64,000 nt of DNA, taken from the IMG/VR virus record IMGVR_UViG_3300033489_000001, positions 126,023 through 190,022 of that record, one strand, 5' to 3'. Of the stretch, positions 1,738 to 57,398 are shown piece by piece. The notes beneath the pieces are model-generated. The model ran no database searches, was not told where the DNA came from, and worked only from the letters and a program-made list of their open reading frames with translations. Each line of letters starts with the position of its first letter. Within the stretch, counting starts at the first letter, position 1. The DNA is from a virus (taxonomy: Duplodnaviria > Heunggongvirae > Uroviricota > Caudoviricetes). The position numbers were made by a program, and so were the translations under genes.

Positions 1738-1968
1738 CTAATTCAACGTCTCATCATAGGGTATGTCAACCGTTACTTTGCCCTCATCACATAGCGTCTG
1801 TATAATCTCTTCGCAAGTTATCAACAATTTGCCTGCTTCATTATAATGTTTAGCTCCCTTTTCTAAATGCTCAATTACAGATCTAACAAGAAGTGCAGGG
1901 TCCTCTGGCAATTGCTTGATTTGGACAGTCATAAAAATACCCACCTCTTCACTTGTGAAAACACTCAT
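1738..1968 (-). CDS. hypothetical protein
   Basis: 76 aa ORF in minus-strand operon. Confidence 0.45.
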   Translation of the reverse strand: MSVFTSEEVGIFMTVQIKQLPEDPALLVRSVIEHLEKGAKHYNEAGKLLITCEEIIQTLCDEGKVTVDIPYDETLN

Positions 1969-3397
1969 AGGCTTTCATAACACTCTCAACAGTTGCCTCA
2001 ACGGGCATACGTTCATCCGTATAACTATCTCTGCCCGCTTGGTCAGTCACGGCATCAATATACATGCCATGCGTTCCCTCAGTACGTCGGAGGAGGCGCT
2101 CATCAAAAACACCTTCAGGAACGCTCTTGGCTAAAGCCGTGTCAATGCCAACCCACCAAGCCTTCTTTACTAAGGGAGCCCAAACATCTACGTTGCTTTG
2201 AATAGGCGTCACCGGAGGCACATAACTAGACCCCCTACCGGATTCTTTATATCCAAGTAAAGTAAGCTTGATGCCTTCGTCATTACATAAATTGAGAATA
2301 GCTACGAACTCTTCGTCAGTAGCCGAACGCATTACATATTGTATACTGGCTAGCCCAAAAAATTCCGGCCGCGTTTTTTGTGATAGTTGATTAATCTCGT
2401 AGATGAAGTTCTTGACTTGCCCGACGTTATTGACAGAGTAAGCAAACCCGTGGTGATTCTTCACAATTAAATCAACGTGCTCAAAAAGCCACTTGAAATT
2501 CCGCGTGCTAAAATTGATCTTGAGGTCTACGTACCATTCTGCACTATGTTGAAGTATTCGCTCAAAATCAGGATGAAGAGTGGGCTCCCCACCGCCAATA
2601 GCAACTTCAAAAACTTGCATAAATTTAAGAGTCAACAACCATTGATCTACATTTACAGCGTGATCTCCTTGTAAACTGCTCCCCTGATAACAGAAGGCAC
2701 ATTCATATGGGCACCAGTCAGTGATTTTTAGATCAACCAACTCTGGCGAGTTGGCATAAAGTCTAGGCTTTGCATCATCTTTAAACGTCAGGGTTATCTT
2801 CTTCCCCGTGTGGGTATTAAACAGAACCCACCAATGCCCCTCTTGACGGCAAATCCATTCTTTATCGCTCACATCTTTCGGGATTTGAGAATACCAAAGA
2901 GGAGACTCAGTGCCTCCTAGATAAGCTCTCTGATAATCTTCACCTGAACCCTGATCATTTCCGCCAAGAATGACCACGTCATCCCGCAAAACGTAGTCCA
3001 ACATGTCTATGAAGAATTCCGGTGGAAATACTTTAGAGCCGTACCATCGGGGTATCAAAGGAACGGATTGGTGATCTATGTAACCTAAAGGCACATCTGC
3101 TATATGCACGTCAGCGGGTGTAACCTGAGCGATCATTGCTTCCATGGTGTGCTTATCATAATCGATCGGATCTTTTGTACCTAATATTCGTCCCGCAATC
3201 ACAGCCTTCATATAACTCAACTTGGCTGCCTTACTTGCCGCAATAAAAGGTTCCCACCCAAACTCACCCTCTTCGCATAAGTAGTCACTAGCAGGCTTCC
3301 AGCCAGGCTGGCGCATAGCGTTAGGTTGATAAACCACCACGCTATGCGTCGAACTGCTGTTGCAGGCAAACCCGTAACGTAAATTTGTTATTTTCAT
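1949..3397 (-). CDS. radical SAM domain protein
   Basis: 482 aa; CPYECAFCYQG (CxxxCxxC) cluster and GGGEPTLHP glycine-rich motif; N-terminal ~220 aa domain of unknown function. Confidence 0.8.
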   Translation of the reverse strand: MKITNLRYGFACNSSSTHSVVVYQPNAMRQPGWKPASDYLCEEGEFGWEPFIAASKAAKLSYMKAVIAGRILGTKDPIDYDKHTMEAMIAQVTPADVHIADVPLGYIDHQSVPLIPRWYGSKVFPPEFFIDMLDYVLRDDVVILGGNDQGSGEDYQRAYLGGTESPLWYSQIPKDVSDKEWICRQEGHWWVLFNTHTGKKITLTFKDDAKPRLYANSPELVDLKITDWCPYECAFCYQGSSLQGDHAVNVDQWLLTLKFMQVFEVAIGGGEPTLHPDFERILQHSAEWYVDLKINFSTRNFKWLFEHVDLIVKNHHGFAYSVNNVGQVKNFIYEINQLSQKTRPEFFGLASIQYVMRSATDEEFVAILNLCNDEGIKLTLLGYKESGRGSSYVPPVTPIQSNVDVWAPLVKKAWWVGIDTALAKSVPEGVFDERLLRRTEGTHGMYIDAVTDQAGRDSYTDERMPVEATVESVMKAYECFHK

Positions 3398-31561: not shown

Positions 31562-32449
31562 ATGAAGATGAGATTTTTTTCTATAGTAGCGGTACTTAGT
31601 TTCTTAGGATTACTGGGGTGTGCTCAAGACGTACCGCAAGCGCACAAGGGCCAGATGTTTGGCAAGACTGGGCCACTCTGTCTTTGGCAAGGGACGGTTG
31701 GTCTCAACGGGCCGGTAGTTGAACCGGGGACGCACTTTACGGGTTACTATGACGAGATCAAACTTTTAGAGTGTGGTGAGAAGACAATAAAGGAGCCTTT
31801 GACGGCTTTGACCAAGGACAACGTTCAGTTTTCCTTGGATGTCTACATTCGCTATAATCCCAATTGTACTGACCTTGCGGCCGTGCAGTTTTTACTAGCG
31901 AGGATAGCGCCTAAGGATGAGGGCAGCCGAACGATAACGGCCATACAGGTATACGAGACTTACGTACGCCCAGTCATAGGCGAAGCGGTACGTGAGGCGG
32001 TACAGCCAATTATAGCCAACGACATAAATGACAAGCGGGACGCTATATTTGCTTCAATTCGAAAGAAGTTCAGTGACGCTCTTAATCAGCATAAGCCCCT
32101 ACTTGTTATCACGTCGATCAACCTTTCTAATCTCAACCCTCCATCCGGGGTTTTGACGGCTAACACGAACCGAGCCTTGCAAGCGATTTACAAAGATACA
32201 GCCATAGCGGAACGGGAAGCGGTAAACGCTCAATTTGACACTGCGGTAATACGTAACAAGTTAGCGGAGCAAGAAGGTAAGAATGAGGCCATCCGGATTG
32301 ACAAGATAGGATCGGCGCTTCAACGCAATCCTGAGTATTTGCAGTACGATTTACAGCAAAGGATGCAGGGGATTTACAAGACGGCCGGGGAAAAGGGCAA
32401 TATGATTATTGCGGCTCCGAGCCCTCAGGTTATCATAAACCGCAAGTAG
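31562..32449 (+). CDS. SPFH/band-7 domain lipoprotein
   Basis: 295 aa; signal peptide with LLGC lipobox; VVEPGTHF and TKDNVQFSLDVYIRY resemble SPFH core. Confidence 0.6.
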   Translation: MKMRFFSIVAVLSFLGLLGCAQDVPQAHKGQMFGKTGPLCLWQGTVGLNGPVVEPGTHFTGYYDEIKLLECGEKTIKEPLTALTKDNVQFSLDVYIRYNPNCTDLAAVQFLLARIAPKDEGSRTITAIQVYETYVRPVIGEAVREAVQPIIANDINDKRDAIFASIRKKFSDALNQHKPLLVITSINLSNLNPPSGVLTANTNRALQAIYKDTAIAEREAVNAQFDTAVIRNKLAEQEGKNEAIRIDKIGSALQRNPEYLQYDLQQRMQGIYKTAGEKGNMIIAAPSPQVIINRK

Positions 32450-42656: not shown

Positions 42657-42884
42657 ATGTCACTAGCTGAAGAAGCAATGGAAGGGTACTGTTGTAGTCG
42701 TTGTGGGACGAAGTTTATAGCTCCGCACGGCTACCCAGTACTCTGTAAAAGCTGTTACCAGTGGGTCCCGCTCATTAAAGAAGGCGGGCTTACTTTGATT
42801 GATGAACCTTACTCTGTAAAAGAAGGTAAGGCATCAAGTAGGCAATGTCCCTCAAAAAGAATGAAAGTCAAGGTATTCTCATGA
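42657..42884 (+). CDS. Zn-ribbon small protein
   Basis: 75 aa; CCSRCG...CKSC; 3' end overlaps conserved non-coding-like block. Confidence 0.4.
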   Translation: MSLAEEAMEGYCCSRCGTKFIAPHGYPVLCKSCYQWVPLIKEGGLTLIDEPYSVKEGKASSRQCPSKRMKVKVFS

Positions 42885-43687
42885 AACCGATAGTTCTAAT
42901 GCGATCTTCTTTAGCCGAACAAGCTGAAAAAGAAGAAGCAGAGCGCCACTTTCAGGTTATAGAAAGGCGAACGCTAATCCCTTCCAACCGGTTGGTCATT
43001 TGCCGGTATTCGGCATTACCTTACTACAAAGAGTTAGAAGAGGATGTCAAAGAATTGGGTAGTCAACTGATCAACAGTTACAACCAACACTTGTTCGTAG
43101 CAGACATGAAGAACTGGTACCCTATATTGGAAGAGTATACCCCTATGACATGGTTTACTCTTGCAGAAGTTCCTTATGGAAGCGGCCCATTTGTTTTGAA
43201 AGGAGCTACTAACTCAAAAAAGAATCAATTTTTCACTCATATGTTTGCCAAAGATAAGCGGGAGGCAATCGAGGTTTTTGGCCGTTTAAGCGATGATGGT
43301 TTTGTGGGTTACCAATCTATTTATATTAGACAATACGCTCGTTTAAGGAAGTTATGTGCCCCAATCACGTCTAACTCTCCGCCGGTCAGTGAGGAGTACC
43401 GGTTCTTCGTTCTGGATGGCCGGATTCTATGCGGGGGCTTTTATTGGAGCGAGTACTTAGATGCTATCCCTGAGAAAGAACAGATAGGGATCAACCAGGT
43501 GCCACTTAACTTCTTGCAAGAAGTTGTCGATTTAGTAGCACCTCACATTCGTTTTTTTGTGCTAGACGTGGCTCGAAGGTTCGATGATCATTGGATCGTA
43601 ATTGAGTTGAATGACGGACAGCAATCTGGTTTATCTTCTATTTCGCTCGCTGAGCTTTATGCCCCCTTAGCGGCTATGCTGGCCTAA
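42845..43687 (+). CDS. ATP-grasp fold enzyme-like protein (probable start at Met 42881)
   Basis: 280 aa; PFVLKGATNS...VGYQSIYIRQY...RFFVLDGRIL...FFVLDVARRFDDHWIVIELNDGQQSG resembles ATP-grasp nucleotide-binding core. Confidence 0.5.
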   Translation: MSLKKNESQGILMKPIVLMRSSLAEQAEKEEAERHFQVIERRTLIPSNRLVICRYSALPYYKELEEDVKELGSQLINSYNQHLFVADMKNWYPILEEYTPMTWFTLAEVPYGSGPFVLKGATNSKKNQFFTHMFAKDKREAIEVFGRLSDDGFVGYQSIYIRQYARLRKLCAPITSNSPPVSEEYRFFVLDGRILCGGFYWSEYLDAIPEKEQIGINQVPLNFLQEVVDLVAPHIRFFVLDVARRFDDHWIVIELNDGQQSGLSSISLAELYAPLAAMLA

Positions 43688-52692: not shown

Positions 52693-53211
52693 ATGACCAC
52701 AGAAACACAAACGAAAAAGACGAAAAATCGTAAAAGTCCATTTAAAGTTCTTACTAATAACCAACGTATTTTAGAGGAATTCAAGAAGAGATCACCGGAC
52801 GTCTGGTTTAATTTTGATGAGATAAACTCTTGGGCCTTTATCTCTGGCTTAAGTGCTGCTGTTAAGTCCGGTATTTTGCTCAAACTAACACAAGATGGTT
52901 TCCTTGAACGGAGAACAAAACTAAGGGGTATTGAGGGGCGGCACCCTTACGAGTACAGGTTCCGTAAAGGATCTATTCGGAATGCAAGCTATTACTTACG
53001 TCTACCTTATTCGCGAGTTTTTGTTCCAGAAGAATCTGGGGGTTTTTCTACAAGGATTTTAGAATTCCCTGGTTGTTTTTCTGAAGGCGAGACCTTAGAA
53101 GAAGCCTACAAGAATTTAGAGGAAGCAGCACGGTGCTGGTTGAATGCTTGCATTGCACAAGGTACTGCTATTCCTCTCCCCGGCATCCCCTGTTTTACTC
53201 GTATCCCCTAA
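52693..53211 (+). CDS. HicB-like (UPF0150) domain fusion protein
   Basis: 172 aa; C-terminal EFPGCFSEGETLEEAYKNLEEAARCWL typical of HicB antitoxin fold; basic N-terminal domain. Confidence 0.5.
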   Translation: MTTETQTKKTKNRKSPFKVLTNNQRILEEFKKRSPDVWFNFDEINSWAFISGLSAAVKSGILLKLTQDGFLERRTKLRGIEGRHPYEYRFRKGSIRNASYYLRLPYSRVFVPEESGGFSTRILEFPGCFSEGETLEEAYKNLEEAARCWLNACIAQGTAIPLPGIPCFTRIP

Positions 53212-53620: not shown

Positions 53621-54244
53621 ATGTCAAACAATACCTCTATAACGGGGGAAATGTCTATTTTTGATTTTAGTTCGAATTTATCCATAAAGCCATCCTGTGT
53701 TTTGCAGGACAATTGTTGTCCAGAAAGAGTCTTTCACGATAAAAAAGTCAAAGATTTGCTAGACTGGACACCCACAAGCCTAGCCAAATTGAAAAATATG
53801 GGTAGAAAAAGTGTAAGAGAAATTCAAGAGGAATTGGCTAAGCATGGTTTGAAATTGAAAGAGGATCTTATTGAAGTAGTGGAACCCCCTCCTAAACAGT
53901 CAGCACAACTGCCCCCTATGCTCCAAAATGAAATGCTCTACGCCCTGACTTCGGCTGTTTTGAATGCTTTGGCGCTATCTGGCGAACCACAAATCTACAG
54001 CGACGTAGCCCCTATAATTGGCTACTACCATCGCGATCGAAACTTTCATATTCAGCTAGGGCGTTCTTTACGGGAAGATCATGCTAACGGCCGCCCTTTA
54101 CGGGCTTCTTTGGTTATAAACAAAGCCTTAGGTATGCCAGGTGATGCTTATTTTAAGGTGTGCCGGGAACTTGGCTATGTTATTCCGTCCGGAGATGAAG
54201 CTACATTTTGGGCCGAACAACTCAAGCGTCTTGAGAAAATTTGA
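53621..54244 (+). CDS. protein with RNA polymerase alpha-subunit C-terminal-domain-like HhH module
   Basis: 207 aa; VKDLLDWTPTSLAKLKNMGRKSVREIQEELAKHGLKL aligns with rpoA alpha-CTD (L..S.R..N.L...NLGKKSLTEIK..L...GL.L). Confidence 0.5.
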   Translation: MSNNTSITGEMSIFDFSSNLSIKPSCVLQDNCCPERVFHDKKVKDLLDWTPTSLAKLKNMGRKSVREIQEELAKHGLKLKEDLIEVVEPPPKQSAQLPPMLQNEMLYALTSAVLNALALSGEPQIYSDVAPIIGYYHRDRNFHIQLGRSLREDHANGRPLRASLVINKALGMPGDAYFKVCRELGYVIPSGDEATFWAEQLKRLEKI

Positions 54245-54252
54245 GTTTTGTC

Positions 54253-54300
54253 TTGAATTGTTTCTTTTGCCGGTGTAGTAATAGGGGGAAGAGGTAAAAG
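54253..54300 (+). promoter_or_regulatory. M1 promoter motif with Shine-Dalgarno leader
   Basis: TTGAATTGTTTCTTTTGCCGGTGTAGTAATAGGGGGAAGAGG. Confidence 0.65.
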
Positions 54301-55164
54301 ATGCACGTTCAACACGTGGTGTATGGTACCTTATCCGTAAATCTTGAGCCAGATATTACGGTTTTTGTCGGCCTTGAAGGCAAGACTCGGCTTTTAAGGG
54401 GTATCCATGAAGCTGTCCAAAGCCCTGACAAAAAAGTGTGGAACTGGGGAGAAATAAAACCAGAAAATCCTGACGTTTTGAAGCCCTTACTGCTTGACGT
54501 TGATCGCGCTAGGGACACTGGTTTCTATAATGAAAAATCGTTGAACTATTTACAACAGGCTGTTGCTAAAGCTGGCTTCCAACGGGGGCTTACGTTTTTT
54601 CCCACAGAGGAAGGAGTTAAGGTAGCCTTCAACGCATCCGAAGACGGGCAAGCACACTTACGGGTTATTTTCACAAGAATTGCCGAACATCTGTTCTCAT
54701 TGTTTGGAGACCAAAATCCGTTAGATGGTTACGCCCTTGTTCTCATCAATGAACTCGAGCTGTTGTTGCATCCCAAATTTCAATACAACCTTTTACCAAA
54801 ACTCAAGACCACTTTTCCAAAAGTTCAGTTTGTAGTTTCAACTAACTCGCCTTTGATTATATCCACCGTAGACGCTCGTTGTTTGAGGATTATAGAAGAT
54901 GAGAAGGTCTATTCTGTTGGTAGGTACACCTATGGACGTGACGCTAATTCTTTGCTGATTGAGGTTTTTGGTGCTCCAAATAGACCCGTAGAGATTGAGA
55001 AAAAGATTGACAACATTTCTCGGCTTATTGACAGAAATAAGTTAGAGGAGGCCAAGAAAGGCTTAGCCGAGTTGGAATCTATAGTTGGGCCTCACGACTC
55101 GGAAGTCTTGCGTATTAATACGCTTCTGCATTTTCTCGAAGACGATGGAGAATCACAAACATGA
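54301..55164 (+). CDS. AAA_21/ABC-type ATPase-like protein with degenerate Walker A/B
   Basis: 287 aa; C-terminal LVLINELELLLHP...QFVVSTNSPLII matches the AAA_21 signature (ilLiDEPE..LHP...QfiiTTHSP) but has N for D; N-terminal P-loop reduced to VGLEGKT. Confidence 0.6.
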   Translation: MHVQHVVYGTLSVNLEPDITVFVGLEGKTRLLRGIHEAVQSPDKKVWNWGEIKPENPDVLKPLLLDVDRARDTGFYNEKSLNYLQQAVAKAGFQRGLTFFPTEEGVKVAFNASEDGQAHLRVIFTRIAEHLFSLFGDQNPLDGYALVLINELELLLHPKFQYNLLPKLKTTFPKVQFVVSTNSPLIISTVDARCLRIIEDEKVYSVGRYTYGRDANSLLIEVFGAPNRPVEIEKKIDNISRLIDRNKLEEAKKGLAELESIVGPHDSEVLRINTLLHFLEDDGESQT

Positions 55165-55448
55165 GCGGCGGGCATTACGATTATGCACACGGCTATGTCA
55201 GTGACATGGCGGAGACTGTAGAAAAAGAGGCCAGTCACCATGTGGTGTGGGATGTTGGTGCATCTGGAAAAGAGAGCCTAGAGCCTCGTTCTCCTGAGGA
55301 AACAAAAGACCGCCTAGAGATGGCCGAAACATTAAAACGGGCTGCTGAGGCTATGCGGGCGTTGGAATGGTACGATTCCGGAGACAGTGGGGATTGGGAA
55401 GCCGTGAAGGCTGCTTTCAGGCACCTTACCTGTCCGGTCAAAAGTTAG
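55161..55448 (+). CDS. hypothetical acidic protein
   Basis: 95 aa; ATGA overlap suggests translational coupling with the ATPase-like gene. Confidence 0.45.
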   Translation: MSGGHYDYAHGYVSDMAETVEKEASHHVVWDVGASGKESLEPRSPEETKDRLEMAETLKRAAEAMRALEWYDSGDSGDWEAVKAAFRHLTCPVKS

Positions 55449-55706
55449 ATGGAGACTTTATTGACAATATTACGCTATATAGGACAAGGAGTACAAAACA
55501 TATTCCTGTTTCTACTGTTTTGGACTTTTCTGATTGATGTGGTGGGTATAGTTGTAGCTTTCTGCTTCAATAAGACTAAGCCTCCAGCGTTACTTGTTAA
55601 AGTGATGAGTACTTCTGTTATGGCCTTGGCATTATTTGGCTGTTTGTGCATCTTTTTCCATTTAGAGGGTATAGCCAAGTGGTAGTCTTAAACAGGTGAG
55701 CTTGCG

Positions 55707-56096
55707 TTGCGAGATATGAAACCCAACGTTTTATTAGTTGAGCGGCTCCGTCCCATGTGGGATCCGATGGAAGCTATCGGTTTCACACCGGACCTCTCAC
55801 AGATCGAACAGGTGGAACCCTTGCTGATGTTTCGTGAGCGACGTGGTCCTGTATACCATAGGAGACGCATCCGATACTTCATGGATTGCTTACGTAGGGG
55901 TCAAGAATTGGAACCCATTAATGTAGACAATTTTTGCGAAGGCGGATGTATCTATCCAACGCCGATTGTACTTGACGGAAACCATCGCTTCATAGCAGTG
56001 ATCCTTATGAAACAAGAAACGATTGAAGCTGACTATGGGGGCCGCGTTGACTTGTTACGTTACTTGGAAGGTAAGCGTAGAAATCCCCCTCTATAA
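55707..56096 (+). CDS. ParB/Sulfiredoxin-like nuclease-fold domain protein
   Basis: 129 aa; IVLDGNHRFIA matches the ParB-N DGxHR motif. Confidence 0.5.
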   Translation: MRDMKPNVLLVERLRPMWDPMEAIGFTPDLSQIEQVEPLLMFRERRGPVYHRRRIRYFMDCLRRGQELEPINVDNFCEGGCIYPTPIVLDGNHRFIAVILMKQETIEADYGGRVDLLRYLEGKRRNPPL

Positions 56097-56864: not shown

Positions 56865-57398
56865 ATGGGAAAGTTCACTTACGAGTCTATTGATAGATTT
56901 CCACAAGCCCATTACGAAATTGATTTGGATTGGGACTACTTAGAGGAATGGTTAGAAAGCCAAAAGAATACCAGGATACCTGAAAGTGGGATTGACCTTG
57001 ACCCTGATTTTCAGCGGGCTCACGTTTGGACACCGGAGCAACAAGTAAGTTACGTGGAGTTTATCCTTCGTGGGGGAGAGTCGGGCCGGGTGCTTTATTG
57101 GAACCACCCAAACTGGCAAGGAAGCTTCAAAGGCTATCTTACCTTAGTTGACGGAAAACAGCGCCTGGAGGCTGTAAGGGCGTTTCTGCGGAACGAAATT
57201 CCTGCTTTCGGTAGTCTACTAAAAGACATGGAGTCAAGATTTTTAAGAAAAACTGGTTCTGGTTTCAAAATGCGGATCGCTAGGCTCAAAACTCGTAAGG
57301 ACGTTCTGAACTGGTACCTCATGATCAACTCCGGCGGAACGCCGCATACCTCGGAAGAGTTAGATCGCGTGCGGGAGCTACTGAAAAAAGAAGCGTAA
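56865..57398 (+). CDS. DUF262 (GmrSD N-terminal, ParB-like NTPase/nuclease superfamily) stand-alone domain protein
   Basis: 177 aa; DLDPDFQRAHVW...ILRGG...LVDGKQRLEA matches the DUF262 DxxPxYQR / (I/V)DGQQR motifs; no DUF1524/HNH partner; ATG abuts promoter motif. Confidence 0.65.
   Translation: MGKFTYESIDRFPQAHYEIDLDWDYLEEWLESQKNTRIPESGIDLDPDFQRAHVWTPEQQVSYVEFILRGGESGRVLYWNHPNWQGSFKGYLTLVDGKQRLEAVRAFLRNEIPAFGSLLKDMESRFLRKTGSGFKMRIARLKTRKDVLNWYLMINSGGTPHTSEELDRVRELLKKEA

Follow-up and report, generated by a model that had tools for sequence, protein, structure and literature searches.

Both Septu and the PtuAB module found in type I-A retrons occur widely, and structures of them have recently become available. 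Neither PtuA nor PtuB is toxic without the other, and mutations in the active site of PtuA abolish the toxicity (PMC12640716). PtuB is held at its C-terminal domain by a claw made of the C-terminal triple helices of two PtuA subunits, and claw mutations abolish defence; the linker stabilises the head-to-head PtuA dimer, while the insertion sequences contact nucleic acid and stabilise the dimer or the higher assembly (PMC12475279, PMC12673091). In the PtuA of Retron-Eco7, the substitutions N95A, E396A and H400A each abolish defence, and D395A causes loss of ATPase activity and dissociation of PtuA–PtuB from the scaffold of reverse transcriptase (RT) and multicopy single-stranded DNA (PMC12673091). 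Septu immunity is likewise abolished by Walker A/B mutants (PMC13096335). Phages are known to escape PtuAB by means of extra tRNAs and a few small proteins of unexplained mechanism. Counter-measures described so far include the small proteins Anhur and Svarog of Vibrio phages, as well as phage tRNA-Tyr and Rad (bioRxiv 10.1101/2024.06.14.598830; PMC11555353; 10.1101/2023.03.15.532788). Here we describe mini-PtuA, a 287-residue protein encoded in a 64,000-nucleotide stretch of viral DNA (hereafter the window; positions 126,023 to 190,022 of IMG/VR record IMGVR_UViG_3300033489_000001), which appears to have kept the PtuB-binding part of PtuA and to have lost the ATP chemistry and the insertion sequences.

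The mini-PtuA gene lies at 54301-55164 on the + strand, in a long array of small, closely spaced genes that share its direction, and its GC content (0.43-0.45) is the same as that of its surroundings. A scan of the array for promoters and terminators gave no signal above chance. The open reading frame (ORF) is real and on the ORF list, and all the strings that a sequence-only reading had quoted from it were found; the string QFVVSTNSPLII corresponds to residues 176-187. The identical protein is recorded from a 411-kb metagenomic contig, and a relative with 88% identity (P0002) is encoded on the related contig L001, where AAGGA stands in the position matching the ribosome-binding site. The features of the gene, as delineated by alignment and by an AlphaFold2 (AF2) model, are as follows.

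54290-54294, + strand: Shine-Dalgarno-like AGAGG, 6 nucleotides before the ATG, as read from the sequence.
54301-55164, + strand: mini-PtuA, a truncated and motif-degenerate PtuA homologue of 287 residues, according to the ORF list, profiles, AF2 and substitution rates (dN/dS).
54301-54420, + strand: N-terminal beta-strands, P-loop remnant and helix alpha1 of the ABC head, residues 1-40 (AF2, alignment).
54370-54387, + strand: degenerate Walker A GLEGKT, residues 24-29 (alignment).
54421-54588, + strand: deletion junction and short remnant of the helical insertion, residues 41-96 (alignments, AF2).
54634-54651, + strand: remnant of the signature motif, ASEDGQ; the family form is QLSDGE.
54733-54753, + strand: Walker B ALVLINE, residues 145-151, followed by LELLLHP (alignment).
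54832-54852, + strand: H-loop strand VVSTNSP, with Asn182 in place of His.
54871-54987, + strand: linker region, residues 191-229 (identity, conserved positions).
54988-55161, + strand: C-terminal three-helix domain (the claw), residues 230-287 (AF2, identity, published role).

The sequence-only reading had assigned the protein to the AAA_21/OLD/RecF-like ATPases. This assignment to the ABC (ATP-binding cassette) ATPase superfamily was correct, and it can now be sharpened: as judged from sequence profiles and from the structural model, the 287-residue protein is a homologue of PtuA, the ABC/SMC-type (SMC, structural maintenance of chromosomes) ATPase of Septu and type I-A retrons. The best PADLOC PtuA match was to PDLC00271 (2.3e-44), with residues 123-284 aligned to positions 257-419 of the 421 in the model. 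The NCBIfam model for the retron Ec78 effector ATPase PtuA (NF041760) matched residues 103-276 only (1.2e-32), and the score of 113.5 bits is far under the 500-bit equivalog cut-off, so that the protein does not qualify as a full-length PtuA. PtuA chains in the Protein Data Bank (PDB) from Retron-Eco7/Ec78, Ec83 and Septu matched at 1e-15 to 1.8e-19, and similarity of this order greatly exceeds chance. In all of these matches, the aligned part is limited to residues ~100-284 of mini-PtuA and to the C-terminal 40% of the target. In Pfam, AAA_21 (PF13304; 21.7 bits) and AAA_15 (PF13175; 19.3 bits) both fell short of their gathering thresholds (27 and 32.1, respectively), with the matches restricted to the last 45-50 profile positions. 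When 1.84 billion representatives were searched exhaustively with phmmer, 7,548 hits were obtained; besides P0002, the best 150 were mostly PtuAs of ~400-460 residues, with some shorter fragments and longer fusions, and the best hits aligned chiefly with the C-terminal part of the query. In a neighbour-joining tree mini-PtuA falls inside the Septu PtuA branch, and its C-terminal 175 residues are 46-47% identical to its nearest relatives, P0006 and P0009, and 30-40% identical to most others. We also considered if the 289-residue PADLOC model PDLC00286 represents a natural short class of PtuA. It does not, as the full-length P0003 aligns to it with residues 134-432, which indicates that the model is truncated at its N-terminus.

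The AF2 model of mini-PtuA (122 sequences) had a mean predicted local distance difference test score (pLDDT) of 87.3 and a predicted template modelling score (pTM) of 0.83, and was poorly defined only at residues 50-75. Within residues 1-40 it places strands at 5-8, 11-14 and 19-24 and a helix at 28-39, with pLDDT >90. When the model was compared with the PDB using Foldseek, the top 50 matches were all PtuA chains (query TM-score, TMq, ~0.7), and many of these alignments span the N-terminal strand/P-loop/helix element together with the C-terminal two-thirds of the query. A search for viral structural analogues in BFVD returned only generic ABC ATPases, at E ~1e-4.

We analysed the nucleotide-handling motifs in an alignment of mini-PtuA with 120 PtuA-family proteins. 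Two defects named by the sequence-only reading, a P-loop lacking two residues and an Asn in place of the Walker B Asp, were both borne out. The stretch ITVFVGLE--GKTRLL aligns to ITVxVGxNGxGK[ST]xxL of PtuAs, i.e. GLE--GKT stands where the full-length relatives all carry GxNGxGK[S/T], and the positions deleted or changed include the Asn equivalent to N95 of Eco7 PtuA. The Walker B Asp is Asn150 (LVLINE), and the motif thus departs from hhhhDE, although the catalytic Glu151 and the P-loop Lys28-Thr29 are retained. In addition, the H-loop His is replaced by Asn182 (STNSP against T-H-S/A-P in the family), the signature reads SEDGQ instead of LSDGE/LSxGE, with Glu114 at the position of the Ser, the first D-loop His after Walker B, equivalent to H400 of Retron-Eco7 PtuA, is Leu155, and the conserved N-terminal NFRGF motif is mostly deleted. 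P0002 has the same defects and reads GLESKT, the Gly of the GK[ST] remnant being gone as well. Compared with the closest full-length PtuAs, lobe I is ~125 residues shorter, the gap lying between helix alpha1 and the 'WF' motif of the family. The missing part comprises the beta-subdomain, the conserved YYxxxR strand and the IS1/DNA-binding region; the helical insertion is reduced to a remnant modelled with low confidence, and a complete two-lobed ABC/SMC head is therefore not present.

An intact Walker A further towards the N-terminus would have spoken against these losses. We found no GxxxxGK[ST] anywhere in the protein. An upstream extension carrying the motif was ruled out by a stop and by the end of the preceding gene at 54244, and no second PtuA-like (N-lobe) fragment was found among the 903 stop-to-stop ORFs of the window. 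Of 51 columns conserved at ≥85% in 120 other PtuAs, mini-PtuA keeps 33 and loses 18, and most of the lost ones are in or beside the nucleotide-handling motifs (NFRGF, P-loop, signature, Walker B Asp, D-loop His and H-loop His). From residue 183 to the C-terminus, all conserved columns are retained except for a conservative Val-to-Ile change at 186. With at least five catalytic or nucleotide-contact positions and most of lobe I gone, the sequence strongly supports the idea, raised by the sequence-only reading, of a pseudo-enzyme; mini-PtuA is very probably catalytically dead.

The part of the protein that corresponds to the PtuB-binding region of known complexes shows the opposite pattern. Conserved positions of the linker and the C-terminal three-helix domain are kept (G212, D214, N216, L219, R228, A251, L258, G263 and D266), and the model predicts the helices of the C-terminal domain at 230-244, 248-262 and 267-285 with pLDDT ~98. 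The linker is 46-51% identical to the nearest PtuAs, and the C-terminal domain is 48-50% identical to P0006 and P0009, against only 19-28% for the N-terminal and signature regions. We also calculated the mean identity of mini-PtuA to 13 full-length PtuAs of its branch, divided by the mean identity among those 13. This ratio, by region, was:

N-terminus: 0.66.
Signature region: 0.45.
Walker B to H-loop: 0.83.
Linker: 1.04.
C-terminal domain: 1.19.

Judging from these comparisons, constraint has shifted in mini-PtuA: lobe II, the linker and the claw are kept, the latter two at family-typical or better conservation. Comparison of the gene with that of P0002 gave a rate of 0.37 for synonymous (dS) and 0.063 for non-synonymous (dN) substitutions, i.e. 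dN/dS of 0.168 (57 differences at 195 synonymous sites and 40 at 660 non-synonymous sites). By segment, dN/dS was 0.12 for the N-terminal remnant (residues 1-111), 0.25 for lobe II (112-190) and 0.16 for the linker and C-terminal domain (191-285). These rates indicate purifying selection on all parts of the gene.

Among ~320 relatives checked, mini-PtuA and P0002 alone combine these defects. In 80 bacterial genomic relatives, the ORF had at least 380 codons in 71, Walker A was intact in 69, Walker B had the D[E/D] form in 78 and the H-loop His was present in all 80; a PtuB-like gene lay directly downstream in 61. The relatives in IMG/VR were full-length (~400 residues or more) with an intact Walker A in 30 cases out of 32, the other two being of 152 and 343 residues, and in nearly all 32 a PtuB of ~217 residues comes next. 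We could not find PtuB in the window: a hidden Markov model (HMM) built from 28 PtuBs and run against the 903 ORFs gave a best E of 0.44, while the same model recovered held-out PtuBs at 1e-13 to 1e-56. Besides P0002, no further members of the lineage were found in 5.8 billion clusters or in the 1.84 billion representatives, and nothing close was found in IMG/VR, in two JGI metagenome scans or by megablast against phage records. The nearest genomic PtuAs, all at ≤45% identity, are spread across Desulfobacterota, large sulfur bacteria, Myxococcota and other groups, and are uninformative as to the host. Some PtuA relatives from Collinsella and Acutalibacteraceae (L091, L096, L114, L121, L124 and L125) appear as short stop-to-stop ORFs of 102-261 residues without Walker A; some of them retain PtuB downstream, and they may be frameshifted or split PtuA genes.

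We compared mini-PtuA with the known systems. Its best matches in both sequence and fold are the PtuAs of type I-A retrons (Retron-Eco7/Ec78 and Ec83; PDB 9kjx, 9n69, 9e8z and 22bu), with which it shares the N-terminal beta-strand/P-loop/helix element, lobe II (Walker B, D-loop and H-loop strand), the linker and the C-terminal triple helix. It differs from them in length (287 versus ~550 residues), in the absence of the retron-specific N-terminal domain, of ~125 residues or more of lobe I and of most of the coiled-coil insertion, and in the changed Walker A, Walker B Asp, H-loop His, signature Ser and H400-equivalent position; there is also no RT, non-coding RNA or PtuB nearby. Septu PtuAs (PDB 8EE4/8EEA from E. 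coli; bacterial P0003, P0007 and L046) belong to the same family. They are, however, 400-475 residues long and carry invariant GxNGxGK[ST], IDE and THS motifs, none of which is found in mini-PtuA. A Vibrio phage record that tblastn had matched, PQ189325, was rejected as a short form, as it holds a complete and intact type I-A retron. This record (L126; PQ189325.1, Vibrio phage 10N.261.55.B9_PE001) is an 11.5-kb filamentous phage of the Tubulavirales with RT, PtuA-type ATPase and PtuB genes, and the retron is annotated in it.

A second short PtuA, P0005 (278 residues; 2809-3645 of L005, Logan SRR28032194), is encoded on an AT-rich, phage-like contig unrelated to the window. Like mini-PtuA, it has lost most of the same middle region, has Asn in the H-loop, has no PtuB nearby and is surrounded by small orphan genes. 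Unlike mini-PtuA, it has an intact P-loop (GDNGVGKT), and its Walker B is I-D-D, i.e. the Glu is changed and the Asp kept. P0005 groups with the P0158-P0161 branch (48% identity) and is only 30% identical to mini-PtuA; it thus belongs to a different branch of PtuA, and shortening therefore happened at least twice. The closest full-length relative of mini-PtuA, P0006 (376 residues; 309-2601 of L039, ENA ERZ27284293), has intact Walker A and B and an H-loop Asn. Its gene is followed by one for a 90-residue membrane protein and then by one for a UvrD/GajB-like helicase (PADLOC GajB 9e-33, RTasHel 2.5e-36), which may be an undescribed PtuA-helicase arrangement.

What could such a protein do for the phage? 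We tentatively propose, short of calling it probable, that mini-PtuA is a dominant-negative decoy that captures the host PtuB or PtuA of Septu or type I-A retrons. Since PtuA and PtuB are toxic only jointly and ATPase-site mutants are inactive, retention of the claw combined with loss of the ATP chemistry would be expected to result in competitive dominant-negative inhibition. From the kept claw, the lost chemistry and the absence of a PtuB of its own in the window, we infer all the further steps. After infection, the claw of mini-PtuA would bind the C-terminal domain of host PtuB, with mini-PtuA acting as a homodimer or paired with host PtuA in a mixed dimer. Such complexes would be unable to bind or hydrolyse ATP or to assemble further, and would thus be inert; the nuclease would stay unlicensed, and host tRNA or DNA would be spared. 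The proposal is consistent with the kept linker and PtuB-binding domain and the lack of PtuB in the window, and also with the occurrence in the neighbourhood of further incomplete versions of host or defence proteins (an orphan HicB-like domain and a protein with DUF262 only). Anhur, Svarog, tRNA-Tyr and Rad would have the same target as such a decoy; going by their descriptions, none of them is PtuA-derived, and a full-text literature search brought up no phage inhibitor described as truncated or PtuA-like. Phage counter-defence of the orphan-antitoxin type against DarTG1 (PMC11825919) is similar in principle only, in that the phage keeps the non-toxic, partner-binding component of a two-part host system; it relies on active antitoxin-like enzymes rather than inactivated ATPases, and there is no homology. 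A broader form of the proposal, in which large phages disarm Septu and type I-A retrons by stripped-down PtuAs that sequester or poison PtuAB and that evolved at least twice from different PtuA branches, is put forward with somewhat greater reserve.

Several observations weigh against the decoy. P0006 has no PtuB next to it, and the ancestral partner of the lineage may thus not have been a classical PtuB. The intact P-loop of P0005 shows that miniaturisation is separable from the loss of nucleotide binding. The N-terminal remnant is constrained as well (dN/dS 0.12), which a simple decoy consisting of the claw would not need. The lineage consists of two sequences only in the databases searched, so that dN/dS comes from one pair. 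Finally, the window contains no structural hallmark gene, and the viral origin of the locus is thus itself deduced.

The constraint on the N-terminal remnant, which suggests a need beyond the bare claw, would fit better with another, rather unlikely, explanation: that mini-PtuA is an exapted non-catalytic subunit of a system of the phage's own, working with neighbouring genes and not directed at host defence. Such a role might lie, for example, in phage–phage competition or DNA handling, with the 95-residue protein of 55161-55448 and the products of 55707-56096 and 56865-57398 as candidate partners. The genes for mini-PtuA, the 95-residue protein, a ParB-like protein and a 116-residue protein form a block that is syntenic in L001, and they are part of a single array of same-strand genes with minimal spacing, inside which no promoter or terminator signal rose above chance. 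Pairs of a DUF262-like protein and an AAA_21-type ATPase are, moreover, a defence arrangement known to PADLOC; the product of 56865-57398 matches NsnA (1.3e-9), and NsnB is among the matches of P0005. However, L001 comes from a close relative (88% identity), and the synteny is not independent evidence. The 95-residue family elsewhere adjoins unrelated genes without a PtuA-like gene, a system driven by an ATPase is hard to square with the loss of the nucleotide-handling motifs, and the parts that are conserved are those that bind PtuB in the known complexes.

The degenerate state of mini-PtuA might alternatively mean that it is a functionless, decaying remnant of a Septu cassette captured by the phage, as could be suggested by the large internal deletion, the loss of several motifs, the lack of a PtuB partner in the window and the existence of only two sequences. 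We regard this as very unlikely, because the ORF is intact in both phages, between which 37% of synonymous sites differ, dN/dS is 0.168, and the family-conserved positions of the C-terminal 105 residues are kept, bar the Val-to-Ile change at 186. Decay would also sit poorly with the compact and confident AF2 model, the GC content similar to that of the surroundings and the ribosome-binding site in both contigs. Conversely, the presence of Lys28-Thr29 and Glu151 could mean that the protein is an active nucleoside triphosphatase with a shortened, non-canonical P-loop and an Asn-Glu Walker B, and some P-loop-like proteins do tolerate variant motifs. A loop two residues shorter than GxxxxGK[ST] cannot, however, make the standard phosphate-binding turn, the change of Asp to Asn takes away a ligand of Mg2+, and the H-loop His, the signature Ser and the subdomain bearing the Q-loop are all missing. 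In addition, the last Gly of the P-loop is Ser in P0002, and the corresponding single mutations in Eco7 PtuA suffice to abolish activity or defence (PMC12673091). Catalysis is, in our estimate, extremely improbable. The remaining probability belongs to functions outside those considered here.

If the decoy proposal is true, no anti-Septu protein that originates from the defence system itself would have been described before mini-PtuA, which would also serve as a template in searches for decoys of other defence systems with ABC/SMC ATPases (such as PARIS, Gabija, OLD and Lamassu). It would mean that phages recycle inactivated defence subunits as inhibitors, and would justify searching phage genomes systematically for motif-dead, partner-less defence ATPases. 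The proposal can be tested quickly, as co-expression of PtuA and PtuB is toxic in E. coli. Decoy or not, mini-PtuA illustrates, in a natural case, which portions of PtuA can be lost without loss of the fold and of the C-terminal module, both of which selection has maintained.

The gene that follows mini-PtuA had been taken by the sequence-only reading for a co-translated partner.

55161-55448, + strand: ORF of 95 residues, phrog_6724 family, with a 4-nucleotide overlap with the mini-PtuA stop codon.

A specific partnership is not supported, as members of the family stand beside unrelated genes elsewhere, the overlap is not kept in L001, where the two genes are 3 nucleotides apart, and the protein has no similarity to PtuB. 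We also rejected the possibility that it is a PtuB remnant, since it gave no PADLOC match, no match to the PtuB HMM and no fold match. Its AF2 model (pLDDT 81) has no significant match in the PDB (E >1). The family has an invariant EAMRALEWYDSGDxGDWE motif and an MSGGHYDY N-terminus. Further downstream, a 78-residue membrane ORF (55449-55685) is present in the window and absent from L001. It is followed by a gene for a small ParB/Srx-like protein (55707-56096, + strand; LDGNHRF motif) with weak matches only, to phrog_1033 and phrog_33277; this gene keeps its order after the 95-residue gene in L001 (1300-1650).

A few genes downstream of mini-PtuA, 56865-57398 (+ strand) encodes another partial copy of a defence-type protein: its 177 residues hold only a DUF262/GmrSD_N (ParB/Srx-like) domain with a DGKQR motif, without the DUF1524 nuclease half of GmrSD (PF03235 1.1e-11, PADLOC NsnA 1.3e-9, phrog_1583 3e-25). 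On the other side, the gene directly upstream of mini-PtuA (53621-54244, + strand) encodes 207 residues with a domain similar to the C-terminal domain of the RNA polymerase alpha subunit at residues 41-73 (PF03118, 29.9 bits against a gathering threshold of 23.8; NCBIfam rpoA models match the same stretch), and its product may mimic this docking domain for host transcription factors. The gene at 52693-53211 (+ strand) encodes 172 residues with a C-terminal HicB-like antitoxin domain (PF15919 3.4e-9, phrog_497). No HicA-like toxin gene is evident beside it, and the product may serve in counter-defence of the orphan-antitoxin type.

The PHROG families, the dense small orphan ORFs and the 411-kb size make a very large phage, or a mobile element of similar kind, the most likely source, with the mini-PtuA gene most likely in an accessory region of such a phage. 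Strong PHROG matches of ORFs in the window include phrog_547 (1e-46), phrog_15480 (3e-43), phrog_5706 (6e-32) and phrog_13631 (3e-25). The window contains no tRNA genes, and megablast of the window against known phage records gave no match. Elsewhere in it are genes for an R2K-clade ATP-grasp protein (42845-43687, + strand; PF14243 1.9e-20), a radical-SAM protein (1949-3397, - strand; PF04055 5.8e-10, phrog_16999 3.9e-22) and an SPFH/Band 7 protein (31562-32449, + strand; PF01145 9.4e-16), all of the accessory type found in very large phages. Among relatives of the 95-residue protein, P0157 (8001-8369 of L043) is 122 residues long and has a zinc-ribbon-like CxxC...CxxC insertion; its contig also carries an AcrVA2-like gene.

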